NCBI GenBank assembly: GCA_963723235.1
Contig: CAVRPV010000017.1
Span: 17,084-81,083, forward strand
Direction: 5' to 3'
Length of the DNA stretch: 64,000 nt
Source of the DNA: an uncultured delta proteobacterium
GTDB taxonomy: Bacteria > Desulfobacterota > WTBG01 > CAIYCZ01 > CAIRTM01
Shown here: in pieces, positions 2,477 to 27,438 of the stretch
Numbering within the stretch: the first letter of the stretch is position 1
How the letters are laid out: each line of letters opens with the position of its first letter
The notes under the pieces: model-generated
The model's input: the letters and a program-made list of their open reading frames with translations, nothing else
Databases searched by the model: none
Told to the model about the DNA's origin: nothing
Program-made: the position numbers and the translations under genes

Positions 2477-4573
2477 ATGGAACACACATCGCAGCACACC
2501 GGAAAGAATGAAACCATCCGCCTGCTCAGCACGAGCCAAAGTGCGGGCCATATCAAGCCGGAGACCTGCGCCAATGCCAGCGCCTGGCTGGCTGATTCGT
2601 TTGCCGGCGTTGCAATCGAGGGCGAAAAGGTCGGCGCCTATATCACCCGGCTTGTGCAGGCCCAGGACTGGCAAACGCTCAATGACTGTTTTTTTAAAGT
2701 TAATAAATTCGGGACAGCAGGCGTGCGCGGACGTCTTGCAATCGGAACAGCGCATTTCAACACGATCGTACTTGGCCTGGGGGTTGAGGCGCATGCGCGC
2801 TATATTATTGAGGCCTATGCACGCAACGGCCTTGCGTTAGAGCGCGAAAAGGCCGTTATTCTGGCCTATGATTCCCGACGCGGGTCCTATGATCCCGCAA
2901 GCGGCGGCCCGGGCTTTCTGGTGCGGGAGGCTGCTGAAATTTATGCCGCACATGGCATCAGGGTATACCTGTTCGACACGGTGGCCCCCACGCCGGAACT
3001 GTCCTTTGCCGTGACGGAATGCGGTGACATACGCCCCTATGCCGGGGGCGTGTTCACCGCGTCGCACAACCCGGCATCGGATAACGGCTTTAAGCCCTAT
3101 GACTTTTACGGCGGTCAGGTGGTTCATGGACGCGTTCAGGAAATAGCCGACACCATCCGCGATTACGCCCAGGTACAGCGCACGGATTATGACGACGCGC
3201 GCGCACGCGGCCTGATCATGACAGTCGGCCCGGGCATTGATAGGGCCTACATTGCTAAAGAAAATCAACTGGCAATCTGGGTGGATTCACACGGGCATTT
3301 CCTGCCCGGGAAAATCACTACCGATCTGCGCGTGGTTTTCTCCGCACTGAACGGAACATCCCAGCGCCTTGTGCCGGCAGTGCTTGCGCGCCGGGGATTT
3401 GACATTAAACACAACCTGCTGCCGGTGACCGAACAATGCCGGCCCGACGGTCTGTTTGCGACCTGCCCCAGGCCTAACCCGGAAGAAAAGCAGGCTCTCA
3501 ACGAAGCGGTCACTCTGGCCATTCGCGAGAAAGCCGACATGCTTGTGGCGACCGATCCGGACGGCGACCGCCTTGGCGTAGGCGTACGCCTGACAGAAAC
3601 ACAGCTGTGTACCTGCGCAGAAGATCCGGCTGTGCAGGACGGCTATTATCTTTTAAGCGGGAATCAACAACTGGTTCTGCTTACTGATTATATTTTGAGC
3701 CAGCTTACAGAGCGCGACGGCGCTCTGCCGCGCAACAGCCTGATTTCAAAAACGCTCGTTTCCACCGATCTTGCCAAAACAATCGCGGATGCCTACGGCG
3801 TTATCACCGTCGAGCCGCATGTCGGCTTCAAATACATCGGGGAGAAAATTGATCTCTATGCCCGCGCCGCATGTGACGCTGCCCGCGCGGATGCTTCAAC
3901 GAACAATGCACCTGACTACCGGGAACTGTCCCGTTGCGACCGGGTACGCCTGCTTGAGCGCTCTTCACTGTGCGTACTGTTCGGCGGTGAGGAATCCTAC
4001 GGATCACTCATCGGTGATTATGTCAAAGACAAGGATGCTGTCAGCGTAACCGCCATGTTCGTAGAGATGGCCGGGTTCTGGAAAAAACAGGGCCGCAACC
4101 TTCTTGAGCGTCTTGAGGAGATCGGACGGCTGTACGGCTATGCCCGCGAAGAAACGATCTCAATCAGTTACAGCGGTTCGACCGGCAGCGATGCAATTGC
4201 CGCGATCATGGCCGATTTCAGGCACAACACGCCTGCAGAAATCGCAGGCCGCCCTGTCATCGCGGCGCTTGATTACCGTGCACCCGGACCCGGCAAAACC
4301 CGCAAGGCCCTGCGCCCGGACGGCAGCATTGTGTTTGAAGATACGGAGCCGACCGATCCTCAGGCGCATACCGGCTACTTCCCTGTCAAGGGCATTGACG
4401 TTCCCATGTTCTGGCATGCCGATTACCGCATCATCGGTTCCAGCTCCCGGCTTCCGGAAGCAGACATGCTGATGTATGTACTTGAAGATGGATCGAAAAT
4501 TGTTGTCAGGCCTTCCGGCACAGAGCCGAAAATCAAACTGTACGTTCTGGCCAGGGGCACACACGGTCACTGA
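2477..4573 (+). CDS. Phosphoglucomutase/phosphomannomutase family (alpha-D-phosphohexomutase)
   Basis: 698-aa ORF with the phosphoserine loop 'TASHNP', metal loop 'DPDGDR' and sugar loop 'GGEESYG'. Confidence 0.88.
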   Translation: MEHTSQHTGKNETIRLLSTSQSAGHIKPETCANASAWLADSFAGVAIEGEKVGAYITRLVQAQDWQTLNDCFFKVNKFGTAGVRGRLAIGTAHFNTIVLGLGVEAHARYIIEAYARNGLALEREKAVILAYDSRRGSYDPASGGPGFLVREAAEIYAAHGIRVYLFDTVAPTPELSFAVTECGDIRPYAGGVFTASHNPASDNGFKPYDFYGGQVVHGRVQEIADTIRDYAQVQRTDYDDARARGLIMTVGPGIDRAYIAKENQLAIWVDSHGHFLPGKITTDLRVVFSALNGTSQRLVPAVLARRGFDIKHNLLPVTEQCRPDGLFATCPRPNPEEKQALNEAVTLAIREKADMLVATDPDGDRLGVGVRLTETQLCTCAEDPAVQDGYYLLSGNQQLVLLTDYILSQLTERDGALPRNSLISKTLVSTDLAKTIADAYGVITVEPHVGFKYIGEKIDLYARAACDAARADASTNNAPDYRELSRCDRVRLLERSSLCVLFGGEESYGSLIGDYVKDKDAVSVTAMFVEMAGFWKKQGRNLLERLEEIGRLYGYAREETISISYSGSTGSDAIAAIMADFRHNTPAEIAGRPVIAALDYRAPGPGKTRKALRPDGSIVFEDTEPTDPQAHTGYFPVKGIDVPMFWHADYRIIGSSSRLPEADMLMYVLEDGSKIVVRPSGTEPKIKLYVLARGTHGH

Positions 4574-10690: not shown

Positions 10691-12241
10691 ATGCATATCG
10701 TAAACGCCGCGCAGATGCGTGAACTTGATCGTGCTACAATTGAAACAATCGGCATTCCCGGCATCGTGCTCATGGAAAATGCCGGCCGCGGCACAGCCGA
10801 ATACATCCTGCGGACATTTCCTGAATCTGCCCTGCGCCGGGTCGTCGTGCTGTGCGGCTGCGGTAACAACGGCGGTGACGGGTTCGTTATAGCACGCTGT
10901 CTTCTGGCTGCCGGTGCCCGGGTGTGCGCGATCCTGCCGGCTGACAGCACGCGTGTTCAAGGCGATGCCCGCATCAACCTCGATGCTTTTCGCGCTATCG
11001 GCGGAAATATCCTTGAAGTTCCTACCGAAGATGACTTCAAACACATACAATCTGAACTGGCCCATGCCTCTCTGTTTGTCGACGCATTGCTTGGAACCGG
11101 ACTTACAAGCGAAGTAACCGGACTCTATTGCCGCGTGATTGAAACCGTCGGCGCTGCTGTGCACGTGCCGGTTGTCGCGGTTGACATCCCCTCCGGCATT
11201 GACGCTTCAACCGGCCATGTTCTGGGCTGCGCTCTGCGCGCACACAGCACCTGCACCTTCGGCCTGCCCAAATACGGCCATGTGCTCTATCCCGGTGCTG
11301 CCTTTACCGGCAAACTTATTGTTATCGACATCGGTATTCCCGCAACTCTGATCAACGAAGCACAACTGCCGGGCAGCCTGCAGGATGCATCTGATTTTGC
11401 CGCAGCGCTGAACACCCGTGCTGCGGATACGCACAAGGGCAACTGCGGGCATGTGCTGCTGCTGGCCGGCAGCGTCGGTAAGACCGGGGCTGCGGTCCTG
11501 AGCGCACGCGCGGCCATGCGCAGCGGAGCCGGACTGGTAACAGTCGCTGCCCCGGAAAAAGCGCAATCCCAGATTGCCTCCCATCTGCTCGAATGCATGA
11601 GCGTACCGCTTGAGGACTGTGACAGCGGTCTCAGCCGAACAGCCTTGCAGCAGATCCTTGATTTGTGCGCGGGCAAAACCGTTCTGGCCATGGGGCCGGG
11701 CCTTGGTGACACGGACGCGGTTGCCGCCATCGTGAGAGCCCTGATTGCAAACGTGCAGCTGCCGATGGTGCTTGACGCTGATGCCCTGAATGCTCTGGCC
11801 CGCGATCCGCAGGTGCTCACACAGGCTACAGGTCCGGTTATACTTACGCCGCACCCCGGCGAAATGGCCCGCCTGACCGGAAAGAGTACTGAGCAGATTC
11901 AGTCCGACCGGGTCGGCGCGGCCTGCACTCTGGCAAACAGGCTTGGCGCTATCATCGTGCTGAAAGGTGCTCATAGCGTGATTGCCGCTCCGGACGGGCG
12001 CCACTGGATCAACACCAGCGGCAACCCGTCCATGGCTACAGCAGGCATGGGAGACGCACTGACGGGCATCATTGCCGGCCTGCTTGCGCAAAAGATTCCC
12101 GCACTGACAGCCACGCGCCTGGCCGTGTTTATGCACGGCCATATCGCAGACAGACTGATTCAGGAACGCGGATCCGCCCCGATCCTGGCATCTGAAATCA
12201 TTGAACGCATTCCGGAAGGCCTGCGGGAATGCACAGCATGA
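10691..12241 (+). CDS. nnr: Bifunctional NAD(P)H-hydrate repair enzyme (epimerase/ADP-dependent dehydratase)
   Basis: N-terminal YjeF_N motif 'CGCGNNGGDGF'. C-terminal kinase-like 'GHVLLLAGS' and 'GMGDALTGIIAGL'. Confidence 0.9.
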   Translation: MHIVNAAQMRELDRATIETIGIPGIVLMENAGRGTAEYILRTFPESALRRVVVLCGCGNNGGDGFVIARCLLAAGARVCAILPADSTRVQGDARINLDAFRAIGGNILEVPTEDDFKHIQSELAHASLFVDALLGTGLTSEVTGLYCRVIETVGAAVHVPVVAVDIPSGIDASTGHVLGCALRAHSTCTFGLPKYGHVLYPGAAFTGKLIVIDIGIPATLINEAQLPGSLQDASDFAAALNTRAADTHKGNCGHVLLLAGSVGKTGAAVLSARAAMRSGAGLVTVAAPEKAQSQIASHLLECMSVPLEDCDSGLSRTALQQILDLCAGKTVLAMGPGLGDTDAVAAIVRALIANVQLPMVLDADALNALARDPQVLTQATGPVILTPHPGEMARLTGKSTEQIQSDRVGAACTLANRLGAIIVLKGAHSVIAAPDGRHWINTSGNPSMATAGMGDALTGIIAGLLAQKIPALTATRLAVFMHGHIADRLIQERGSAPILASEIIERIPEGLRECTA

Positions 12242-12798: not shown

Positions 12799-14376
12799 AT
12801 GAAAACCATAACACTGTATGATGCAACACTGCGCGAGGGGAGCCAGGCCGAGGATATTTCCTTCTCAATTGAGGACAAGCTGCGCATAACAGTCCGCCTG
12901 GACAATCTCGGCCTGCACTATATCGAAGGGGGCTGGCCGGGCGCAAATCCAAAAGACAACAGCTATTTCAAAGAGATTCAATCCTACAGCCTCAAAAACT
13001 CTACTGTGGTTGCCTTCGGCAGCACGGCCCGGTCCGGCAAACCGGTTGCGAAGGATAAAAACCTGCAGGAACTCCTGCAGGCCCGCACCAGCGCGGTGAC
13101 TATTTTCGGCAAGGTCTGGGATGTGCATGTGCGCGAAGTGTTAAAAATATCCCCGGCTGATAATCTCACGCTGATTGAGGAATCAATCGCATTTTTAAAG
13201 CAGCATGTCAGGGAAGTTTTTTTCGATGCCGAACATTTTTTCGACGGCTATAAAGCCAGCCCGGAGTATGCCGAACAGGTGCTCGCGGCTGCAACGCGCG
13301 CCGGCGCGGACTGCCTGGTCCTCTGTGATACGAACGGAGGCTGCCTGCCGCATGAAGTACAGCACATCGTGCGGCAGATCAAAAAACAGCACACAACCCG
13401 GCTGGGAATACATGCTCATAATGACGGTGACGTGGCCGTGGCCAACACCCTTGCAGCGGTACAGGCCGGATGTACGCATGTGCAGGGCACGATCAACGGT
13501 TTCGGAGAGCGCTGCGGAAACGCGAACCTGTGCTCAATCATTCCGAATCTGCAGCTCAAGATGGGCCTGAACTGCACGAGCGCTGAGCAGCTCAAAGGCC
13601 TGACCGATGTCTCGCGCTTTGTGAATGAAATGGCCAACTTCGCCCCGAACAAGCATCAGCCGTTCGTCGGCACCAGTGCGTTCGCACACAAGGCCGGCGT
13701 GCATGTCAGTGCCGTGAAACGAAAACCGGAAACATACGAACACCTCACTCCTGAGCTGGTCGGCAACACCCAGCGTATTCTGATTTCAGACCAGGCCGGG
13801 CGCGCCAACATTATCCAAAAAGCCCGCGAGTTCAAGCTTGATATCGAAACGCATGAACCGCTCGTGCAGGAACTGCTCGTCGAACTCAAGGAACTTGAAC
13901 TGCAGGGTTTTCAGTTCGAAGGCGCTGAAGCCTCGTTTCAGCTGCGCATGCGGCGGGCACTGGGCGTGAGCAAACGCTATTTTGACCTTGTCGGCTTCCG
14001 CGTGATTATAGAAAAACGCTCCGATGACGAATTGATTTCAGAAGCGACGATTATGGTGCGTGTTGGCGGCAGCATTGAACATACTGCGGCGGTTGGCAAC
14101 GGCCCGGTCAATGCGCTTGACAATGCCCTGCGCAAAGCCCTGGAAACATTCTATCCTACCCTGCGCGATGTCTCCCTGCTGGACTATAAAGTGCGCGTTT
14201 TCTCCACAGGCGCAGGCACGGGCTCACGCGTGCGGGTTCTGGTTGAATCCGGCGACCGGCATGACCGCTGGGGAACCGTAGGCGTATCTGAAAATATCAT
14301 CGAAGCCAGCTGGCAGGCGCTGACCGACAGCATCACCTATAAACTGCTCAAGGATGAACTGTACCGGGAAACATAG
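12799..14376 (+). CDS. cimA: (R)-citramalate synthase (LeuA-family, CimA-type)
   Basis: '[13 protein letters not shown]', '[19 protein letters not shown]' and a C-terminal LeuA-dimerisation-like region. Length about 525 aa. Confidence 0.85.
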
Positions 14377-15010: not shown

Positions 15011-15697
15011 ATGGCAGCAAAGCAGAAAGTGGTTACCAAAGATCTTCTTGGTTTTGAAAACATTGTCGATTTCAACGAAAAGCTCAAGGCATATCTTGAG
15101 GAAAATGCCCGACAGATTATCGCCATTGCCCTGATAGTCTGCCTGACCGTCGGCGCTGTCACGTACTGGATGATCAGCAGCAGAGCATCCGCGCAGACTG
15201 CCCAGAGCATACTGAACCAGGCCCTGACCACGATGAGCGCTCCCGCCCCGACAGAGGCAGAGCAAACGGCCGCGCTGTCCTCGGCAATAACGGCATTGAG
15301 TATGGCGGTTGATACCTACAGCCGGACAGAGGCGGGACGGGCCGCATTGTTTTATCGGGCCCAGTGCAAACTTCGTCAAAAAAACTACAGCGATGCGATT
15401 GCCGACTATACGAACTTTGTACAGTACAACGGCTTAATGGTTGACCAATTGCGTCCCGTTGCCTTTGAAAATATCGGGTACGCTCATGAAGCCCTGGGGG
15501 ATTCAGCCGAAGCGCTGAAATGGTTTGAAAAGGCCGTGCAGGCTGGCTGCAGTGCGGCGCTTGTCGGCATGGCGCGGATACATGAAGCTGCCGGTTCATC
15601 AAAGCTTGCATGTGAATGTTACCAGAAATACCTTGCTGGTACTGACACGGTCTATCGGGACATAGTTGAAATGAAAATCGGGGAAGTGTGCCGCTGA
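15011..15697 (+). CDS. Membrane-anchored tetratricopeptide-repeat protein (YfgM-like)
   Basis: 228 aa with one TM segment ('IIAIALIVCLTVGAVTYWMI') followed by TPR-like helices. Confidence 0.7.
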   Translation: MAAKQKVVTKDLLGFENIVDFNEKLKAYLEENARQIIAIALIVCLTVGAVTYWMISSRASAQTAQSILNQALTTMSAPAPTEAEQTAALSSAITALSMAVDTYSRTEAGRAALFYRAQCKLRQKNYSDAIADYTNFVQYNGLMVDQLRPVAFENIGYAHEALGDSAEALKWFEKAVQAGCSAALVGMARIHEAAGSSKLACECYQKYLAGTDTVYRDIVEMKIGEVCR

Positions 15698-15826
15698 CAG
15701 TTTCTGCGGCAGCGGGCTCACAAGACCTGCCCTGAGAAGGTAAGGCCTGAAGCGGCTTCAGGGCTGGGCAGATCAGGACAAACGGACATGCCATCCGGCC
15801 GACATGCCGGAGCATTGAACAGCTTA

Positions 15827-16268: not shown

Positions 16269-17202
16269 ATGGCTGCAAAGGACTATTACAAGGTTTTGGG
16301 TGTTGAAAAAACAGCGACTGTGGCTGAAATAAAAAAAGCCTATAAGGAACTGGCGTTCAAATACCATCCCGACAAAAACCCGGGAAACGCTAAAGCAGAA
16401 GACCGCTTTAAAGAAATCAGCGCAGCATATGCTGTTTTGAGCGACAAGAGTAAGCGCGCACAATATGATCAATTCGGCTCAAGCGGATTTCATCAACGCT
16501 ACAGCCAGGAGGACATCTTCAGGGGCGCGGACCTGAACGATATATTCAGGGAGATGGGATTCAGCAGCAACAACGATATATTCGGTCAGATTTTTCGGAG
16601 GCGGGCGCGGCCGCAGACAACAGACATACAGAATGGATGATATATTCGGTGGCAACAGCGGCGGATTCGCATCCGGCCCCAAGGCGGCCCGCGGTCAGGA
16701 CCTGAGCCTTGAGCTTACAATTGATTTCATGGACGCTTTCAACGGCTGTGAAAAAACCGTCGAATATGTCCATGGCGGCAAAAAACATGGCGTTAAGGTC
16801 AAAGTGCCGGCAGGCATAGCCTCGGGTCAAAAGCTGCGACTGGCCGGCAAGGGTGGGTCGGGTCAGGGTGGATCGGGCGACATGTTTTTTACCATCACAG
16901 TTGCCGCCCACCCCGTTTTCAAGCGCGAGGGCTATGATGTTATTATTGATCAGGAAATAAAAATAAGCGAAGCAGTGTTCGGAACCAGCCTTGAAGTGCC
17001 GACCCCGCACGGCAACCGCACAATCAAAATACCCGCAGGCATCCAGAACGGCACAAAACTGCGCTTAAAAGGAATGGGCATGCCCCATTTCGACAAAAGC
17101 GATCAGGGCCATGCCTATGTCCGGATCTCAGTTACAATCCCGAAACACCTGAGCGAGGCCCAGAAAAAACTCTTCAAGCAGCTCTCAGAAGAAGGCTGCT
17201 GA
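16269..17202 (+). pseudogene. cbpA: CbpA-type DnaJ-family co-chaperone (J-domain plus DnaJ C-terminal domains, no zinc finger), with an apparent +1 frameshift in a T5 run
   Basis: J-domain 'DYYKVLGV...YHPDKN'. Frame 3 ends '...[14 protein letters not shown]'. Frame 1 reads '[21 protein letters not shown]...' and then the DnaJ_C beta domains. The junction is at TTTTT 16591-16595. Span is 934 nt (3n+1). Confidence 0.85.
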
Positions 17203-17288: not shown

Positions 17289-17618
17289 ATGAACTACACA
17301 TCAAAAGCTTTGCTCGTGGTATCGTTGCTCCTGGTGGCGCTCACGACAGCTGCCTGTGAAAAAGAAGGCCGGGAAATTGACAAAACGCTGAACGCCTCAA
17401 AAGAAAAAATTTTGGCATTCACGACAGCTGCCTGCGCACCAAAAGACACCGCTGAAAAAATAGGCCGGGAGATTGACAACGCGGTTACCACCATAAAAAA
17501 AATAGCGGCATTCACGGAAGCAGCCCGCCAGAAAGAAGGCAGCGCTGAAAAAGCGGGGAAGTACATTGACAAAACGTTGAATTCGGCAAAAGAAACAATC
17601 AACGAAGCCACACGCTAG
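17289..17618 (+). CDS. Small lipoprotein with three ~31-aa internal repeats
   Basis: Signal peptide plus lipobox 'LTTAAC'. The repeats are 'TTAAC-EKEGREIDKTLNASKEKILAF', 'TTAACAPKDTAEKIGREIDNAVTTIKKIAAF' and 'TEAARQKEGSAEKAGKYIDKTLNSAKETINEA'. Confidence 0.7.
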   Translation: MNYTSKALLVVSLLLVALTTAACEKEGREIDKTLNASKEKILAFTTAACAPKDTAEKIGREIDNAVTTIKKIAAFTEAARQKEGSAEKAGKYIDKTLNSAKETINEATR

Positions 17619-17797
17619 AGCATTTATCTAAATACTATAGCCTGCGATACAACACCGTCCGTTCGCCCTGAGCCTGTCGAAGGGTGAACGGACAAGGTAT
17701 TTAATACTGAAACCCGTTCATGGTTCGACAAGCTCACCACGAACGGGTGAACATCTTCTTTTTAAAAAGGCTACAAAAAAAAGATAACTACGCTAGA
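17616..17797 (+). mobile_element. Miniature TIR element (MITE-like), copy A, at the left boundary of the accessory island
   Basis: It is the reverse complement of 27259-27438; about 165 of 180 positions are identical in a hand alignment. Termini are TAGAGCATTTATCT / AGATAA..GCT.. It starts on the TAG stop of the lipoprotein gene. Confidence 0.8.
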
Positions 17798-18035: not shown

Positions 18036-18336
18036 TCAGCTTTTGGATGCTTGGGCGTGCAGCTTCAGTCCCAGGGCGTGTACAACCTTGAGGATGGTAT
18101 CAAAGCCGGGGCTTCGATCACCTGAAAGGGCCTTGTACAGGCTTTCACGCGACAGGCCGGTATCACGGGGCTACCTGCGACATGCCGCGGCTGCGGGCAA
18201 TATCGCCCAACGCTTTCGCAATAAAGGCGGCATCGCCGTCGGCCTCTTCAATGCAGGCTTCGAGATAGGCGGCCATTTCTTCAGGCGTGCGAAGATGCTC
18301 TGCAACATCGTAACGGACTAGTTTTTGTTTTTTCAT
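18036..18336 (-). pseudogene. HTH antitoxin ('addiction module antidote' type), frameshifted
   Basis: 'MKKQKLVRYDVAEHLRTPEEMAAYLEACIEEADGDAAFIAKALGDIARSRGMSQVA' is followed, after a +1 shift, by 'RDTGLSRESLYKALSGDRSPGFDTILKVVHALGLKLHA'. The extra base is in the GGGG run at 18167-18170. Span is 301 nt. Confidence 0.75.
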
Positions 18337-18397: not shown

Positions 18398-18654
18398 TTA
18401 AGTGTTATTACAAACCTCCATCAAGTGGCGCACCGTGACGCCTTTATCAAGCATGCGCGTCGTTATGCTGTCTGAGCACCCTGAATAGTGACGAGCTCAT
18501 AGACGTACCCCTTCAGAATCGTGCCCGACGATTGGGAATGCCGCTATAGCCGGACTGCTCGAAACGCATGGCCGATCTTTCTCGCGAAAGCTTTCTATGC
18601 CGCCAGAGCAGAAAGAGTACGAAAACTAGTTGTCGTGTCGAATTTGACGTACAT
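18398..18654 (-). pseudogene. Decayed RelE/ParE-superfamily toxin remnant, partner of the antitoxin at 18036-18336
   Basis: It reads 'MYVKFDTTTSFRTLSALAA*KAFARKIGHAFRAVRL*...SGTILKGYVYELVTIQ...' and, in another frame, '...DKGVTVRHLMEVCNNT*'. It has two in-frame stops and at least one frameshift. It sits where a toxin-first module would place its toxin. Confidence 0.35.
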
Positions 18655-19401
18655 TCGTCACTGATTGTGAGCCGAATTGGCTAAACACCTGTCAAGGTTA
18701 ATCTCGAAGAAATCCTGTACTGCTGTCAGCACTGTATTGTCGCCGGGTTTTCAAGTTTCTTCCCTGTAGCTTTTTAACCCCCATCGTTTCGTAGTTAGAT
18801 TTGATACCACCTTTCTTTGCTCGGCAAAGAAAGGTGATACCCCCAAGAAAGCCGCCCCGTGGCACCTTGGCGTCCGCCCAAGGTCGGGATTGCTCTCGCC
18901 GGGACACACGATCGCGGGAACGGCACGAACTCGCACATTCGGGCGCTCAGACAGCGTGTCGTTCGTATCCGCGCTCATGCACCTGTCCTCCGCAGTAGCC
19001 TGCTACGGAGGGTGGACCCGGCTCGGCTGCGCTCCGATGGGGTTTGAAACCCCTGAACCTTGGACTTTTAACCTTCTTGTGACTTTGGACCTTCGACTTT
19101 GGTTTTTGGTCTTCGGTCCTTGTTCCTCCCCCTACCACGATAACGCCAAGGCCTGTCAGCGCTGTTTTCATACCCACCACTTTCATCAATAGATTCACCC
19201 AACGCTTACCCCATAAACCTCTGTACTGGTTACAGTTTCCGTTTGCACATTGAAATAAATAATTATAAGATCATTTGAAATTAACAAGATTAAACCAAAA
19301 CCGCATTGAGGATAACACCGCAATGGCATAGGTTTTATAAGGGGCTTAGACGATAAATTTTAATGAGCGTATTTGGCAGAAATGGGCATGGGTGATTACA
19401 A

Positions 19402-19746
19402 ATGACAATCAATGAATTGACTGAAAAACTCAGGATGTTTGCCAAAGAGCGTGATTGGGAGCAGTTCCACTCGCCTAAAAATCTTTCTATGGCTCTCGCG
19501 GTTGAAACAGCTAAGCTCATGGAACACTTTCAATGGCTTACAAAAGACCAAAGCCTAAATCTTGAAAAGACAACATTAGAAAAGGTTAAACAAGAAATCG
19601 GCGATACTCCAGATTTATCTGCACGTCTTGCTGACCAACTTGGTATTGATCCTCTACAAGCAGCAGAAGAAAAATTGAAAATGAATGCCGCAAAATACCC
19701 GGTTGATAAGGCAAAGGGATCGGCTAAAAAATATACCGACTTGTAA
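19402..19746 (+). CDS. MazG-like all-alpha nucleoside triphosphate pyrophosphohydrolase (dCTPase-like)
   Basis: 114 aa with 'FAKERDWEQFHSPKNLSMALAVETAKLMEHFQW', 'EIGD', 'RLADQLGID' and 'KNAAKYP'. Confidence 0.8.
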   Translation: MTINELTEKLRMFAKERDWEQFHSPKNLSMALAVETAKLMEHFQWLTKDQSLNLEKTTLEKVKQEIGDTPDLSARLADQLGIDPLQAAEEKLKMNAAKYPVDKAKGSAKKYTDL

Positions 19747-19809
19747 GGGCATAAGGCAAACTTGCACCTTTAACAGTAACTTCATTTCCATGCCATAAGA
19801 GTTAATCCA

Positions 19810-21778
19810 GTGATTGTTTACTCTGCTACAAAAGAAAAATTTCAGAACGATATCATGACAAATGATATCGAAAATATCATTTTAGATGCTTTTAAAACCA
19901 CAACGGGCAGACGCACAATATCTTCAGAGATAATGTCATGGAAAAACTCGTTACCATGTATGGGGCGGATTTTACAAGACAATGCAATTCCGAAGGATAC
20001 AGGCGTTGCAATTGAATATCATATTCCGCAATCATCCAAACGCATCGATTTTATTTTGACAGGTAAAGATCATCAAAATAAAGAAGCTGCCGTACTCATA
20101 GAACTTAAACAATGGGACAAAGCCTACCTGACAGATAAAGATGCAATCGTAAGCACACGGTTCAAGCACGGCGAAGTAGAGACACCGCACCCCTCCTACC
20201 AAGTCTGGTCATATAAATGTCTTTTAGAAGATTTTAATCAGACTGTACAGGAAGAAAAAATCGGGCTCTTCCCTTGCGCATATCTTCATAATTATGACCC
20301 TGATGATGTTATTACAAACAAACGCTATAGCAAATATATTCAAAATGCCCCGATTTTTTTAAAAAAAGATGCCCTGAAGTTGCAGCGGTTTATAAAAGAG
20401 TACATCAAATATGGTGACCGCAATCAAATCATGTACCGGATTGAGCATGGCAGGATAAGACCATCAAAAAACCTTGCCGATCAGCTTGTATCAATGCTTC
20501 AGGGCAATCAAGAGTTTGTGATGATTGATGATCAAAAGGTTGTCTATGAAACTGCTCTTAAGCTTACAGGGAAGGCATCTACCACTAAAAAACAGGTATT
20601 GATTGTTGAAGGTGGCCCAGGGACCGGAAAATCTGTTATTGCAATTAACCTTCTTGTTGAACTAACAAAGCAAAAGCTGCTTGCACAATATGTTACGCGA
20701 AATTCTGCACCTCGCTTAGTTTATGAAGCGATGTTAGCAGGTACTTTAACAAGAACGAATATATCTAACATGTTTAAGAGTTCGGGTTCTTATCATGCCA
20801 TAGAAGATAATGTTTTTGATTATTTGATCGTTGATGAAGCGCATAGGCTTAATGAAAAATCAGGTATGTTTAATAACCTTGGTGAAAATCAAATCAAAGA
20901 AATAATCAAGTCAAGTAAATGCAGTATTTTTTTTCTTTGATGAAGACCAGCGGGTAACCCTTAAGAGATATTGGTAATAAAGAACAAATTCGCCAGTTTA
21001 CAAAAGAATCTAATGCGGATGTTTTGGAGTGTGGACTCGAATCTCAGTTTCGTTGTAATGGTTCAGACGGGTATCTTGCCTGGCTTGACAATACATTACA
21101 AATAAGAGAAACGGCGAATGAAAAACTTAGTACGGATTAATATGATTTTCGTATTATTGATAGTCCTTTGAAATTACATAGTTTGATCCGTGAAAAAAAT
21201 AGAGAAAACAATAAGGCACGTATCTGGTGGCGGGGTACTGTTGGAAGTGGGTTAGCAAAAAGAATCCGGTTCTTAAAGATATTGTTATTGGTGATTACAA
21301 GGCGACTTGGAATCTTGATAGCGACGGGCAGGTATGGATAATTAAGCCGGATTCAGTGAATGAAGTGGGCTGTATTCATACTTGCCAAGGGTTGGAAGTT
21401 GACTATATCGGAGTTATAGTAGGCCCGGATTTGATTGTGCGTAACAATGAAGTCATTACCCAGCCCCTTGAGCGTGCATCTTATGATAAGTCAGTTCATG
21501 GGTGGAAGAAAAGGATGAAAGAAAAACCCCATGAAACAAAGAAGATGCTCGATGATATTATTAAGAACACCTATCGCACACTTATGACCCGTGGGCAAAA
21601 GGGTTGTTATGTTTATTTTGTCGATCAAGAAACGCGGCAATATTTCGAAGCACGCCTTAAGTTAAATGCAGAGAGCATGGATGCTGTTTTGCAAGAAGCA
21701 TGTTGCAATCAACAGCCTTTTAGACAGCTACCAGTTGAAGAAATAAGGCCTTACGAGAATTGTGTGCCCTTGTGTTGA
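19810..21778 (+). pseudogene. DUF2075-type protein with a nuclease-like N-domain and a P-loop ATPase/helicase core, multiply disrupted
   Basis: N-domain 'AIEYHIPQSSKRIDFILTG...AVLIELKQW'. Walker A is 'EGGPGTGKSVIA' and Walker B is 'LIVDEAHRL'. Motifs then continue across frames: 'IFF|DEDQRVTLK|DIGNKEQ...ESQFRCNGSDGYLAWLDNTL...STD*YDFRIIDSP...KARI|VAGYCWKW...CQGLEVDYIGVIVGPD...TRGQKGCYVYF'. Frame changes are at ~20927-20938 (T8 run), ~20963-20967 and ~21224-21227. An in-frame TAA is at 21138-21140. Confidence 0.8.
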
Positions 21779-22236
21779 CTTTAGAGCAGCAGCCGGACAT
21801 TTTAGTGATGAGCAACAGGTAACATCATGGATCAATGGTCAGGACGAAACGGAGATATCAGGAAACGACTTGGGTTGAGTTGCCGGATGTTTTTCGACCT
21901 CAACGAGATTTGTTTGTTGCCCAAGTTGTCGGTGAATCCATGAACCGTCGCATACCAAACGGCTCATGGTGTCTGTTTCGTTTGAATCCTGCAGGTTCTC
22001 GCCAAGGGAAGATAGTTTTGGTTCAGCATCGGGATATTGCAGATACTGATACAGGTGGGCATTACACCGTCAAGCTGTATGAAAGCAGAAAACAGGAAAA
22101 GGTGGACGGTAGTTGGCTCCATTCATCGATTGTTTTGCGACCTGATACTACAGCATCGGGGTATGAACCAATCATATTAAGCGAGGATCAGTGCGATTAT
22201 TTAAGGGTAATCGCAGAATTTATTGCAGTTTTGTGA
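21774..22236 (+). pseudogene. LexA/S24-type serine peptidase domain. It apparently continues the DUF2075 reading frame as a C-terminal fusion, and is frameshifted.
   Basis: One extra base at 21773 joins '...PYENCVPL' to 'VDFRAAAGHFSDEQQVTSW...', which contains a LexA-like AAG cleavage-site motif. After another shift (21835-21876) it reads 'WVELPDVF...FVAQVVGESMNRRIPNGSWCLFR...GKIVLV...YTVKLY', with the catalytic Ser in 'GESM' and Lys in 'VKL'. Confidence 0.7.
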
Positions 22237-22277
22237 GCGGCTGTGATTTTTGGTGGAATTTTGGGTAATTCGAAATG

Positions 22278-22297
22278 CGGGGACACCATACTAATTT
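22278..22297 (+). repeat. 20-nt direct repeat CGGGGACACCATACTAATTT, the left flank of the EEP/PD-(D/E)xK gene pair
   Basis: 19 of 20 positions are identical to 23755-23774. Confidence 0.7.
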
Positions 22298-22436
22298 TAA
22301 CTGTCCTTCGGTTCAAGAATGGGTATGCCCCCACTGATTTCCACCATTGTGCAGGCGCGGTGAAATATCAAAATTAACAGGCATATCAAATGCGGGGAAT
22401 AAAGGGGCGCAGCCCCCTATTGCCGAAGGATTGCCA

Positions 22437-23193
22437 GTGAGAATCGTTTCTTGGAACTGCAACGGTGCTTTTCGGAAGAAATTTTCGCAGCTTGCAGCAA
22501 TTGACGCTGACGTCTACATCATTCAAGAATGTGAAAACCCTCAATTGCTAGTCAACAAGAGTAAGGAGTTTCTCGAATTCTCCTCGAATCACCTTTGGCA
22601 TGGCGAAAACAAGAACAAAGGTCTCGCAGTTTTTGCGAAACCTGATCTTGGGCTTAAAAAAGTGACGCTTAACCATGATTGGCATGGTAGATCTCTCAAG
22701 TGGTTTCTTCCTTTTTACCTTTCTAAAAGCAATCAAATATTTAAGTTCTTGGGGCTTTGGAATCATAGTGCTGGCGCAAAGGCGTTTGCCTATATTGGTC
22801 AGTCCTGGCTATTCTTCCAGAACAACAGAGAATTCTTTAGGAATGCCATTATCGCTGGCGATTTCAACAGCAACAAGATATGGGATTCGTGGGATAGATG
22901 GTGGAATCACACAGACTATGTAAATGAACTCTCAAATCTTGGTCTATGCAGTCTTTATCATTTCATTTATGGCCAAGAACAGGGGACGGAAACTCAACCA
23001 ACTTTCCTTTTGCAGAGAAACGAAAGAGAAGAAATACCACATCGACTACATTTTTACCGATGCGGAAAAAGCACAGCGGACTACAGAGTTCAAGATCCAT
23101 GATTTCAAGGACTGGATAGAACTAAGTGACCATGTGCCAATCGAATGGAATTTTAGTGAGCGGTCTGAAGGGAAGCTGAATGGACAACGATGA
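22437..23193 (+). pseudogene. Endonuclease/exonuclease/phosphatase (EEP) family protein, with an apparent +1 frameshift near 23010-23040
   Basis: GTG start at 22437 with AAGGA 8 nt upstream. Motifs are 'RIVSWNCNGAFR', 'DVYIIQECE' and 'IIAGDFNS'. In frame 1 it continues 'KEKKYHIDYIF...ELSDHVPIEW'. Span is 757 nt (3n+1). Confidence 0.8.
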
Positions 23194-23705
23194 AGATTAT
23201 GTACTTGATAAATGCAAAGGAAGCATCTAGAAAAAAATCACTCGGTGAACTGGGTGAGCTCTTTGCGATAAAGACTCTCGTTGACAATGAATTCGACAAG
23301 ATCAGAAACCTAAATGACGACCATAGGAATGAGGCCTTTGCAGACATAGTTTGTGAAAAGAATGGCGTGAGGTATGTGGTCAGCGTAAAGGCAAGAAACA
23401 AATTTCAACTGGACGGCAAACTGAATAGTCGGTACAACTTGGGAACCAATGCGTATGAAAAGGCGCGATCAGCGGAGTACAAACATGGTGGAATTGCTCA
23501 TTGGATGGCGATCCAGTTCGACCTTCATGAATATTCAGTCTATTTTGGGTCGTTGAGCGAGTTGAATTCGGCCAAAGCGATACCGATTGACAAGTGTGAA
23601 GCTGGTATCATTGGCAAAAAACTAGTTGACAGGAAAAGGCACTATTTTGATTTTGGATACTACAAGAACAAAATGAGGAGAAATCTAATATCAAAATCAA
23701 CTTGA
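23190..23705 (+). CDS. Small PD-(D/E)xK-like (restriction-endonuclease fold) protein
   Basis: 171 aa with 'GELGELFAIKTLVDNEFDKIRNLN...FADIVCEKNGVRYVVSVKARN', which resembles the G-E...D...(E/S)-x-K pattern of YraN/Hjc-like nucleases. Its ATG overlaps the EEP stop (ATGA). Confidence 0.55.
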   Translation: MKIMYLINAKEASRKKSLGELGELFAIKTLVDNEFDKIRNLNDDHRNEAFADIVCEKNGVRYVVSVKARNKFQLDGKLNSRYNLGTNAYEKARSAEYKHGGIAHWMAIQFDLHEYSVYFGSLSELNSAKAIPIDKCEAGIIGKKLVDRKRHYFDFGYYKNKMRRNLISKST

Positions 23706-23754
23706 CTCAGGCCGTTCGTCCTCCGTAGGTAACTTTTCAATGGAGGGGGAAATC

Positions 23755-23774
23755 CGGGGACACCATACTGATTT
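23755..23774 (+). repeat. 20-nt direct repeat CGGGGACACCATACTGATTT, the right flank of the EEP/PD-(D/E)xK gene pair
   Basis: 19 of 20 positions are identical to 22278-22297. Confidence 0.7.
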
Positions 23775-23786
23775 ATCCAAATCTTA

Positions 23787-23900
23787 CCGGGGTCGGACCT
23801 TGCCCGGCGGTGTTAAGCTGTTGAATCTGCTGATGTGTTCATTGCCGCACGGCACGTTTTTAGTGCTTAGAAGCCCTTTTTCAGTATCAAAACCCGCGCT
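23787..23900 (+). repeat. Island repeat family T, copy 1 (CCGGGGTCGGACCTTGCCCGGCGGTGTTAAGCTGTTGAATCTGCTGATG...)
   Basis: It is near-identical over about 110 nt to 24781-24890 and shares its first ~65 nt with 25829-25895. Confidence 0.8.
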
Positions 23901-24780: not shown

Positions 24781-24890
24781 CTGGGTCGGACCTTGCCCGG
24801 CGGTGTTAAGCTTTGAATCTGTGAGTGTTCATTGCCGCATGGCATGTTTTTAGTGCTTAGAAGCCCCTTTTCAGTATCAAAATCCGCGCT
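24781..24890 (+). repeat. Island repeat family T, copy 2
   Basis: 'CTGGGTCGGACCTTGCCCGGCGGTGTTAAGCTTTGAATCTGTGAGTGTTCATTGCCGCATGGCATGTTTTTAGTGCTTAGAAGCCCC...' is in the same orientation as copy 1. Confidence 0.8.
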
Positions 24891-25819: not shown

Positions 25820-25828
25820 TGTGTCTGA

Positions 25829-25895
25829 CCGGGGTCGGACCTTGCCCGGCGGTGTTACGCTGTTGAATCGGTTGATGCGTACATTGCCGCACGCA
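25829..25895 (+). repeat. Island repeat family T, copy 3 (5' part only)
   Basis: 'CCGGGGTCGGACCTTGCCCGGCGGTGTTACGCTGTTGAATCGGTTGATGCGTACATTGCCGCAC' begins 10 nt after the higA stop. Confidence 0.75.
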
Positions 25896-27258: not shown

Positions 27259-27438
27259 TAGAGCATTTATCTTTTTTCTGTAGCCTTTTTAAAAAGAAGA
27301 TGTTCACCCGTTCGTGGTGAGCTTGTCGAACCATGGACGGATTGCAGCGTCAAATACGTTGTCCGTTAACCCTTCGCCAGGCTCAGGGCGAACGGACGGT
27401 GTTGTATCGCAGGCTATAGTATTTAGATACATGCTCTA
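27259..27438 (-). mobile_element. Miniature TIR element (MITE-like), copy B, at the right boundary of the accessory island
   Basis: It is the reverse complement of copy A. Termini are TAGAGCATTTATCT ... AGATACATGCTCTA (14-bp TIR with 1 mismatch). Confidence 0.8.

Follow-up and report, generated by a model that had tools for sequence, protein, structure and literature searches.

A question raised by this locus is whether four closely spaced plus-strand genes of an uncultured delta proteobacterium (positions 19402-23705 of the 64,000-nt stretch of DNA analysed here, hereafter the window) form one defence system that matches no named one, as the original prediction proposed, or merely lie side by side. 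The four units and their domains were recovered as predicted: Pfam profiles matched the MazG-like, DUF2075, S24 and EEP parts, and the fold of the 171-aa protein was called from an AlphaFold model with Foldseek (Table 1). The AT-rich core of the island was also evident, with a GC content of 0.37-0.44 vs about 0.52-0.60 in the flanks, and so was the defence-island company, which comprises VapBC, HigBA, a truncated third antidote (PF21716), a NYN protein and a DUF1016_N fragment. As shown below, the locus is probably not one four-gene system; instead, two nuclease modules (modules A and B), each independent and horizontally mobile, appear to lie side by side in a variable island.

Table 1. Features and lesions of the locus (positions in the window)
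Feature	Position	Strand	Identification
MazG-like gene, 114 aa (module A)	19402..19746	+	PF12643
Composite nuclease-like/DUF2075/S24 protein (module A)	19810..22236	+	PF09848, PF00717
Presumed PD-(D/E)xK N-terminal domain of the composite	19810..20514	+	RIDFILTG ... LIELKQW
DUF2075 / Schlafen-group-3 SF1 helicase core of the composite	20590..21626	+	PF09848
LexA-type S24 autoprotease domain, C-terminus of the composite	21761..22236	+	PF00717
Spacer between modules A and B	22237..22436	.	~200 nt
EEP-family (Exo_endo_phos) nuclease/phosphatase, about 251 aa (module B)	22437..23193	+	PF03372
171-aa Hjc/RecU-type PD-(D/E)xK-fold nuclease (module B)	23190..23705	+	AlphaFold model, Foldseek
Lesion: +1 in T-run (T8)	20927-20934		helicase core
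Lesion: extra base	20966		helicase core
Lesion: TAA stop	21138-21140		helicase core
Lesion: extra AT	21222-21223		helicase core
Lesions: two indels	21773 and about 21872		S24 part
Lesion: one extra A (AA to AAA)	near 23023		EEP frameshift

Gene neighbourhoods were compared in 80 species-level genome loci carrying the DUF2075 protein, and in 53 metagenome loci plus other contexts carrying the 171-aa protein. Of the 80 genome loci, 68 have a MazG-like gene next to the DUF2075 gene, and in 65 of these pairs it is the upstream one, with a gap of usually 0-76 nt. This partner is not obligatory, because no MazG-like match was obtained in 12 loci, 7 of which are not cut by a contig end. No homologue of the EEP or 171-aa protein was found in any of the 80 genome loci; likewise, MazG, DUF2075 and S24 were found in none of the 53 metagenome loci, nor in the other 171-aa contexts except a single contig (L100). 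An EEP homologue flanked the 171-aa gene, on either side, in about 10 of the 53 metagenome loci, and no third gene is conserved among the neighbours of module A. The conserved four-gene neighbourhood was thus not borne out. According to the original prediction, homologues that are never syntenic elsewhere would point to a chance juxtaposition and, because the four genes form no single conserved neighbourhood, this is largely what we observed.

The exception deserves attention, as L100 is the only related contig that repeats the four-gene order, with all four genes intact (including a 251-aa EEP counterpart). Its S24-EEP-171aa segment is 91.6% identical to that of the window at the nucleotide level, and its inter-module spacer 92%, despite a swapped helicase core that is only 35% identical. 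Together with the co-directional, close arrangement of the genes, this conservation speaks for all four acting as one defence system, in which the EEP and Hjc-like nucleases would work downstream of, or with, the MazG/DUF2075-S24 pair. Against it, the modules are parted by 200 nt and do not co-occur in the two surveys or the other contexts. L100 itself comes from the ENA assembly series (ERZ250395xx) in which most of the closest contexts were found, and since it also shares repeat families with the window, its quartet is explained by shared descent. We therefore regard a single four-gene system as very improbable, although the two modules may still be functionally linked to some extent within the window/L100 lineage, because L100 keeps both the intact quartet and the conserved spacer. 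A 26-nt motif occurs in this spacer (22272-22297), with a second copy after the 171-aa gene (23749-23774).

Module A is a widespread two-gene operon composed of a DCTPP1-like NTP pyrophosphatase and a Nhi-like nuclease-helicase, the latter ending in a LexA-type S24 tail in some loci but not in others; no description of it was found in the literature searched. Cultured strains with an intact copy include Geobacter sp. OR-1 (L034) and Halomonas sp. G11 (L089). The MazG-like protein of the window matched PF12643 with an E-value of 7.5e-12 (45.8 bits vs a cut-off of 27), and an intact homologue (L025) matched mammalian dCTP pyrophosphatase 1 (DCTPP1/RS21-C6) over its full length, including the C-terminal KYTDL tail (E 3.6e-25). 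DCTPP1 prefers dCTP and 5-modified dCTP. The EAxELxE and ExAD motifs are kept in the bacterial family, which differs from DCTPP1 in being the operon partner of a nuclease-helicase and whose dCTPase role is a prediction from these similarities. The window copy departs further from DCTPP1: a compensated double frameshift near 19605-19625 has scrambled one helix (DTPDLSA replacing DTQIYLA), and a conserved Glu is changed to Lys.

The second protein of module A is spread over three reading frames in the window and amounts to ~806 aa once frame-corrected. PF09848 (DUF2075/SLFN-g3 helicase) matched it at 1.2e-27 and 1e-39, and a tblastn search with an intact homologue (P0007) recovered four frame segments at 69-83% identity. 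The helicase Walker A motif GGPGTGKS and DEAH are invariant among 33 homologues. In the N-terminal domain, E69, D80 and E98-L-K100 are invariant in alignments of 33 and 19 homologues, and secondary-structure prediction places a helix ahead of a series of strands; this domain is thus presumed to be a PD-(D/E)xK nuclease. Its structural model was poor (pLDDT 65), a fold search with that model gave no confirmation of a nuclease fold, and searching PDB sequences with a profile of the family returned no match.

By architecture, this effector is Nhi-like. Nhi and 'Nhi-like' are defined by an N-terminal nuclease plus DUF2075 (bioRxiv 10.1101/776245; 10.1101/2022.05.11.491447), and the S. epidermidis Nhi (SERP2475; Bari et al. 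2022) and 'Nhi-like' proteins (Millman et al. 2022) likewise carry, on a single polypeptide, an N-terminal domain of nuclease type together with a DUF2075 SF1 helicase core. Nhi is, however, a single gene, whereas module A has a DCTPP1-like neighbour in 68/80 loci and, in 37/80, a C-terminal S24 domain. When window proteins and intact homologues were searched with PADLOC v2.0.0, the effector was matched in part by the models for Nhi, AbiO and PDC-S41. The Nhi and AbiO models hit the ATPase core (E 4e-12 for intact P0007), and the similarity to Nhi was confined to this core (model positions 179-332 of 470, 30-43 bits). The best match was PDC-S41, to which the effector aligned both at the N-terminus (model positions 5-276 of 657) and in the C-terminal helicase part (416-623). 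Membership in PDC-S41 was rejected, given a partial match of only 58-68 bits even on intact proteins of 617-813 aa; this single-gene candidate, unvalidated to our knowledge, probably shares the architecture as a distant relative. The MazG-like, EEP and 171-aa proteins had no match, so that, in line with the original prediction, none of the proteins has a strong PADLOC model. Such weak and partial matches do not tie the exact module A family to phage defence, nor does any experiment.

The S24 tail is an optional part of the operon. PF00717 matched the window composite at 1.7e-6 (28.1 bits vs a cut-off of 23.3), and 37 of the 80 genome loci, as well as L100, have intact counterparts of 769-818 aa in which S24 is fused in frame to the DUF2075 protein. 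According to a NJ tree of 77 helicase cores, S24 has been gained or lost at least 7 times. In the window domain, the region around the cleavage site (RAAAGHF) is still present, as are the Ser of GESM and the Lys of TVK. Conservation of GxSM and of the TVK Lys reaches at least 90% among the aligned S24 fusions, and an AAG-type site is present in nearly all of those shown. These three features align with the C-terminal domain of E. coli LexA, a peptidase S24 like UmuD and lambda CI, while a phmmer search with the domain matched no solved structure. In contrast to LexA, UmuD and lambda CI, in which S24 is joined to a DNA-binding or polymerase-accessory domain, the module A domain is joined to a nuclease-helicase. 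The same subtype also terminates Type I (HsdR-type), Type ISP, MmeI-like and SNF2/ResIII-type restriction proteins, which suggests that the tail may serve as a self-cleavage switch.

Module B pairs an EEP-family protein (PF03372, 26.2 bits vs a cut-off of 24.5) with the 171-aa protein, whose intact ORF starts at an ATG overlapping the EEP stop (ATGA). The 171-aa protein belongs to no Pfam family; its 847 homologues are 65-80% identical and come from different phyla. E20, E23, D52 and S65-x-K67 are invariant. Its AlphaFold (AF2) model (pLDDT 84.6) identifies it as a Hjc/RecU-type nuclease with a PD-(D/E)xK fold: the top Foldseek matches (E 1e-5) were archaeal Hjc and Hje, bacterial RecU and the DREN nuclease of SPARDA, which superpose with a TM to target of 0.6-0.7 (E 1e-5 to 1e-3) and with which the invariant E..D..SxK pattern agrees. 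However, sequence identity to these proteins is just 14-20%, and the 171-aa protein differs in an additional C-terminal beta-rich part and a Ser at the (D/E)xK position. Unlike resolvase genes, its gene keeps company with Mrr, HNH and EEP nucleases rather than recombination genes, an association looser than that of the MazG-like and DUF2075 genes. Because its gene elsewhere usually stands alone or beside Mrr/HNH restriction-type nucleases, the 171-aa protein most likely serves as a restriction-like nuclease with an accessory or effector role.

The window copy is non-functional as assembled, because its module A and its EEP gene are disrupted by frameshifts and a stop codon; five indels and one TAA fall in the DUF2075-S24 gene alone. 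The original prediction was right about the disruptions in this assembly and too low in its count, as three rather than two of the four units are affected. They reflect either recent inactivation or assembly error. The possibility that they are base-calling or assembly errors, and that the window genes are intact and functional, is a serious one to which we give slightly less than even chances. Related ERZ250395xx contigs also hold broken genes, including essential ones (L005 has mreB split in three, and L100 a fragmented nitrogenase-like gene), and one gene seen in an ENA and a Logan assembly of possibly one sample (L007 and L008) differs exactly at the frameshift site. Two of the window indels lie in homopolymers, namely the T8 run and the AA to AAA change, and the substitutions relative to L100 fall mostly at third codon positions (44/70, 44/77, 23/33 and 10/19), which argues against long neutral decay. 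On the other hand, most window indels are outside homopolymers, a nonsense substitution is atypical for indel-type error, and about 9 indels, the TAA and the Glu-to-Lys change are packed into 4.3 kb, whereas roughly 50 kb outside the island reads as long ORFs (judged without a homologue check), with one likely frameshift noticed (cbpA, 16269-17202).

What module A does for its host could also be read as housekeeping of damaged DNA and the nucleotide pool, in which modified dCTP would be cleaned up by the dCTPase-like enzyme, and damaged or stalled DNA would be processed by the nuclease-helicase, whose activity the LexA-type tail would couple to SOS. The complete set of LexA features in the S24 domain, cleavage-site region included, is consistent with this reading, as are the close homology of the MazG-like partner to a house-cleaning enzyme and the position of some loci (L005, L007) among ordinary metabolic genes. 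Such a role is nevertheless unlikely in view of the patchy distribution of the family, whose members are 55-86% identical between phyla and domains (Desulfobacterota, CPR, Bacteroidota, Proteobacteria, Verrucomicrobiota and archaea) and are also carried by plasmids and, in one instance, by a phage record. In addition, defence-type genes are over-represented right beside the module, whose neighbours include Fic/SoFic, RadC, nSTAND3, HNH, RhuM, Mrr, methylases, PDC-S05 and PDC-S23; the window locus sits in a low-GC island with TA modules, the S24 subtype is found on bona fide restriction enzymes, and the effector core has the architecture of Nhi.

Overall, we infer a role in defence for two separate nuclease modules. 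In module A, the effector would translocate on and degrade foreign or replicating DNA, and its S24 tail would cut itself off upon a DNA-damage or ssDNA signal (RecA*), switching the effector on or off. The dCTPase-like partner would remove dCTP or modified dCTP, which may either starve phage replication or force the phage DNA to be unmodified. In module B, the Hjc-like small nuclease is paired with the EEP nuclease.

The four plus-strand units that the original prediction placed in an AT-rich island were all recovered by Pfam searches, ORF analysis and GC content, and the VapBC and HigBA modules, the NYN protein, the DUF1016_N fragment and a truncated third antidote were found beside them. Tblastn resolved the DUF2075-S24 gene into four frame segments showing 69-83% identity to P0007, an intact 617-aa homologue, and the protein rebuilt by reading the DNA and reconstructing the frame is about 806 aa long. 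It consists, in order, of an N-domain (RIDFILTG...LIELKQW), a DUF2075/SLFN-g3 helicase (PF09848 at 1.2e-27 and 1e-39), a linker and a LexA-type S24 domain (PF00717, above the cut-off). The PADLOC and HMM searches that had been proposed as a check returned the expected Pfam domains but no strong PADLOC model for the locus proteins, and NCBIfam gave a family-level name for none of them. A look-up of the window's own protein P0001 found no entry. Scanning the window for tRNAs and Rfam families gave no matches, and the promoter/terminator scan of the locus gave signals no higher than shuffled expectation.

Positions of the locus genes, their lesions and surrounding features in the window
Feature	Position	Strand	Remark
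dnaJ/cbpA-like gene	16269-16640, 16633-17202		split into DnaJ ORF and DnaJ_C ORF, 8-nt overlap (16633-16640)
109-aa ORF	17289-17618		lipoprotein-like start; three tandem ~93-nt repeats (families D1, D5); no Pfam match
Inverted repeat, 180 nt	17616-17795 / 27259-27438		92% complementary; 9.46 kb between arms; translation includes FDKLTTNG
Truncated antidote gene	18163-18336		adjoins MITE-like repeat
MITE-like repeat	18408-19049		
Low-GC stretch	19-24 kb		0.37-0.44 vs about 0.52-0.60 in surroundings
MazG-like ORF, 114 aa	19402-19746	+	PF12643, E 7.5e-12, 45.8 bits vs cut-off 27
DUF2075-S24 gene	GTG start at 19810	+	product split over three frames
DUF2075-S24 lesion	20927-20934		+1 within T8 run
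DUF2075-S24 lesion	20966		surplus base
DUF2075-S24 lesion	21138-21140		TAA stop
DUF2075-S24 lesion	21222-21223		surplus AT
DUF2075-S24 lesions	21773 and ~21872 (two)		further indels
26-nt motif GAAATSCGGGGACACCATACTRATTT	22272-22297		~40 nt past S24 stop
EEP gene		+	PF03372 fragment above cut-off
EEP lesion	near 23023		one surplus A, frameshift
171-aa ORF		+	ATG overlapping EEP stop
26-nt motif GAAATSCGGGGACACCATACTRATTT	23749-23774		~40 nt past 171-aa stop
~110-120-nt repeat, core GGGTCGGACCTTGCCCGGCGGTGTTAAGCT	23782-23900, 24783-24890, 25824-25893		three same-strand copies

Although the domain content was borne out, the reading of the four genes as one conserved neighbourhood was not. Starting from DUF2075, more than 8000 relatives of the N-terminal fragment were found, with about 70% identity in the nearest, and a scan with one genome per species gave at least 595 confirmed loci, the best 80 of which were analysed. 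Among these 80, a MazG-like gene adjoins the DUF2075 gene in 68, lying upstream on the same strand in 65 (mostly 0-76 nt away) and downstream in 3; the 12 loci without a MazG-like gene include about five that are cut by a contig end. An in-frame S24 fusion is present in 37 of the 80 (ORFs of 769-813 aa), while EEP and 171-aa homologues were near the DUF2075 gene in none of these best 80 of the at least 595 loci. The flanks of the MazG-DUF2075 pair are diverse (Fic/SoFic, RadC, nSTAND3, HNH, RhuM, Mrr, methylases, PDC-S05 and PDC-S23), a typical defence-island setting, and the best 80 loci showed no conserved third gene around it. On the side of the 171-aa protein, 847 homologues were found with 65-80% identity across phyla and no Pfam family of their own; MazG, DUF2075 or S24 was near the homologue in none of 53 metagenome loci, nor in the contexts fetched singly. 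An EEP homologue adjoins the 171-aa gene in about ten loci, on either side and with 35-78% identity. Two further genes recur beside the 171-aa gene in separate loci, one for full-length Mrr (Mrr_N plus Mrr_cat) and one for a small, roughly 105-aa HNH protein; Mrr or HNH beside the Hjc-like nuclease was seen in the loci L110, L125, L128, L129, L133 and L010.

The sole repeat of the four-gene order is on a related contig, L100, which belongs to the ENA assembly series where most of the nearest contexts were found. All its genes are intact (MazG, 112 aa; DUF2075-S24, 818 aa; EEP, 251 aa; small nuclease, 174 aa) and follow the order of the window in a different genomic setting. Comparison of L100 6263-10525 with window 19402-23735 showed 91.6% nucleotide identity over S24-EEP-171aa and 82% over MazG, but only 35% protein identity in the nuclease-helicase core. 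The comparison shows a mosaic whose break falls where DUF2075 meets S24, a pattern that points to replacement of the effector core within flanks that stayed conserved. In our reading, L100 and the window inherited a local juxtaposition from a common source and the core was swapped; the quartet gives no support for a four-gene system, and we regard it as highly unlikely that the four genes act as one. The locus is two independent modules, broken in this assembly: the MazG-like gene with its DUF2075 effector (module A), and the EEP gene with the 171-aa nuclease gene (module B). These results also call for caution in genome scans, where clustered co-directional nucleases of an island are not to be called a system before their synteny has been examined starting from each side.

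Module A is a widespread variant of the Nhi-like design, a putative nuclease-helicase whose partner resembles a dCTPase and whose LexA-type tail is optional. A homologue of the partner matches mammalian dCTP pyrophosphatase 1 (DCTPP1) over its full length with an E-value of 3.6e-25; DCTPP1 is a human house-cleaning enzyme. When the PDB was searched by sequence, the MazG-like protein alone gave a match; the DUF2075 profile, the S24 part, EEP and the 171-aa profile yielded nothing significant. The Glu motifs EAxELxE ... ExAD are conserved across the MazG-like family, and the window copy departs from them, reading ETAKLME with Lys at a position where Glu is at least 85% conserved. In the effector, Walker A (GGPGTGKS) and DEAH of the helicase core are invariant among homologues, as are E69, D80 and E98-x-K100 of the N-domain; the AlphaFold2 (AF2) model of this N-domain is poor (pLDDT 65), with no Foldseek match below E 0.1 and no Pfam nuclease match. 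The combination of a nuclease with DUF2075 defines Nhi and 'Nhi-like' proteins (bioRxiv 10.1101/776245; 10.1101/2022.05.11.491447), and the module A effector resembles them in architecture, its putative nuclease N-domain being followed by DUF2075. However, its match to the PADLOC model of Nhi is not full-length, being limited to positions 179-332 of 470 at 30-43 bits, and the AbiO and PDC-S41 models are also matched partially and weakly. These partial, weak matches indicate that the effector is related to Nhi by design and lies outside the family.

At least 595 module A loci were confirmed in species-representative genomes; identity among members from different bacterial phyla and some archaea is 55-86%, and the pair is carried as well by plasmids and one Microcystis phage record. 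The latter (L155 3657-5863; Microcystis phage Mwe-JY31, PP438423.1, deposited as a phage) carries a MazG-like and a DUF2075 protein with 44% and 58% identity to those of the window. On the Hymenobacter canadensis plasmid NZ_CP114769.1 (L154 4001-7987), two tandem DUF2075 paralogues with 55% and 34% identity to the window protein adjoin genes for a DNA methyltransferase and a DUF4747 protein, and a MazG-like gene is absent. In another locus (L009 6947-7981), a 326-aa protein directly after an AbiEi/AbiEii pair comprises the C-terminal helicase part and S24 only, without the N-terminal half and without MazG, and may be a remnant. Cultured strains that carry an intact module A include, with the S24 tail, Geobacter sp. 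OR-1 (L034), Geomesophilobacter sediminis (L035), Halomonas sp. G11 (L089) and Caenimonas sedimenti (L094), and, without it, Pedobacter sp. CAN_A7 (L047) and Mucilaginibacter agri (L072). The literature search found no paper that has DUF2075 together with MazG and none describing the module A operon. Module A is a very widespread two-gene operon, unnamed and without a strong PADLOC model, in which one gene encodes a DCTPP1 homologue and the other a Schlafen-type helicase in fusion with a nuclease-like domain.

In module B, the confident AF2 model of the 171-aa protein (pLDDT 84.6) can be superposed on Hjc, Hje, RecU and the nuclease domain of SPARDA; Foldseek matched it to Hjc ST1444 (E 1.2e-5) and to Afu Hjc with a TM-score of 0.7. 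Throughout the family E20, E23, D52 and K67 are invariant, and Ser replaces the (D/E) before K. The EEP protein scores 26.2 bits as the window fragment and 29.2 bits as the intact L100 protein, against a Pfam cut-off of 24.5, and its catalytic motifs SWN, QE, GDFN and SDH are visible in the translations of L100 and L010. The company of Mrr, HNH and EEP points to a restriction-type role of module B.

The frame disruptions flagged at the outset in two of the four units are present in the sequence, but the damage extends further and the 171-aa gene alone is undamaged. Besides the lesions of the DUF2075-S24 and EEP genes, the window MazG has two frameshifts that compensate each other but leave five codons scrambled within a conserved helix, so that DTPDLSA instead of DVLIYL follows ExxD. 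We considered whether the DUF2075-S24 gene is naturally split or uses a programmed frameshift, an idea that arose from many matches of about 325 aa starting near the same point. It was ruled out by the differing sites and the intact ORFs: the window site (KAR|LVAG) is unlike that of the compared loci L007 and L008 (GYCW|TW), these two disagree with each other at the shift site itself, and the DUF2075-S24 ORF is uninterrupted in 37 genomes. Recent inactivation is the somewhat favoured explanation. The substitutions between the window and L100 are concentrated at third codon positions, which indicates that the genes were under purifying selection until recently. An assembly error has less than an even chance but deserves serious weight: the related ENA series is visibly error-prone, as mreB is broken into three pieces in the contig L005 and the mismatch between L007 and L008 is located exactly at the frameshift site. 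Outside the island, the dnaJ/cbpA-like split was the sole likely frameshift noticed, and in the ORF map the remaining window reads as long ORFs.

Several repeats accompany the island. The inverted repeat brackets the whole of it, and the ~110-120-nt repeat is restricted to it, with about 1 kb spacing and one copy after each cassette (EEP+171aa, vapBC and higBA). In attC sites, R'' (RYYYAAC) lies at the 5' end and R' (GTTRRRY) at the 3' end. The three island repeats have GTTAAGC near the 5' end and about 90 nt conserved downstream; an integron/CALIN cassette array was rejected, as this layout, read by eye, is the reverse of attC and an integrase-sized ORF is absent from the island. The 26-nt motif was likewise dropped as a cassette boundary, since L100 has one copy only (after S24). 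The MITE-like repeat of the window belongs to a family that recurs at several sites of L100, in either orientation (1693-1719, 3751-3948, 11752-12003, 14026-14136 and 15627-15784).

The S24 tail aligns with the whole C-terminal domain of LexA. The window copy keeps GESM and TVK, its Ser and Lys match LexA S119 and K156, and its RAAAGHF aligns with the LexA self-cleavage region VAAGEP. Conservation across the 37 fusions reaches at least 90% for GxSM, for the Lys and for one Ala column at the cleavage site, and an AAG-type site is present in nearly all aligned fusions shown, those of L024 and L027 being without it. In a tree of 77 helicase cores, the tail was gained or lost at least seven times. 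A profile of this S24 subtype found 2108 representative clusters, in which the domain is nearly always C-terminal in host proteins of many sizes. When nine long S24-subtype proteins were scanned with Pfam, N-terminal domains were identifiable in eight: SNF2/ResIII or Helicase_C in three, MmeI-like Type IIL in one, Type ISP in two and DUF2075 in two. HsdR C-terminal domains fused to S24 were also found. Carriers of the SNF2/ResIII, MmeI-like, Type ISP and HsdR types include the proteins P0407, P0440, P0414, P0433, P0474, P0480 and P0200 / L156 1-728. The literature search found no paper linking S24 to restriction enzymes.

From these sequences we infer a built-in, RecA*-responsive self-cleavage switch as an attractive candidate. 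It is possible, if doubtful, that the S24 tail is a portable proteolytic switch on DNA-translocating restriction and defence enzymes, triggered by RecA* and, in the DUF2075 family, accompanied by a DCTPP1-like partner. DNA damage or a replicating phage would supply the RecA*-ssDNA that prompts the tail to cut itself at the Ala-Gly site, and cleavage would switch the enzyme off as a built-in restriction alleviation; alternatively, it might unleash the enzyme. In the DUF2075 family, the putative switch would be coupled to DCTPP1-like action on the dCTP or modified-dCTP pool. To our knowledge, the mechanism of restriction alleviation has been worked out mainly for EcoKI. There, control of restriction after DNA damage is proteolytic and requires ClpXP (PMC11109961). 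The main interest of these findings lies in the S24 pattern, more than in this damaged locus. If the proposed switch is real, it would show how DNA-damage signalling gates dangerous DNA-degrading enzymes, the problem of autoimmunity and restriction alleviation.
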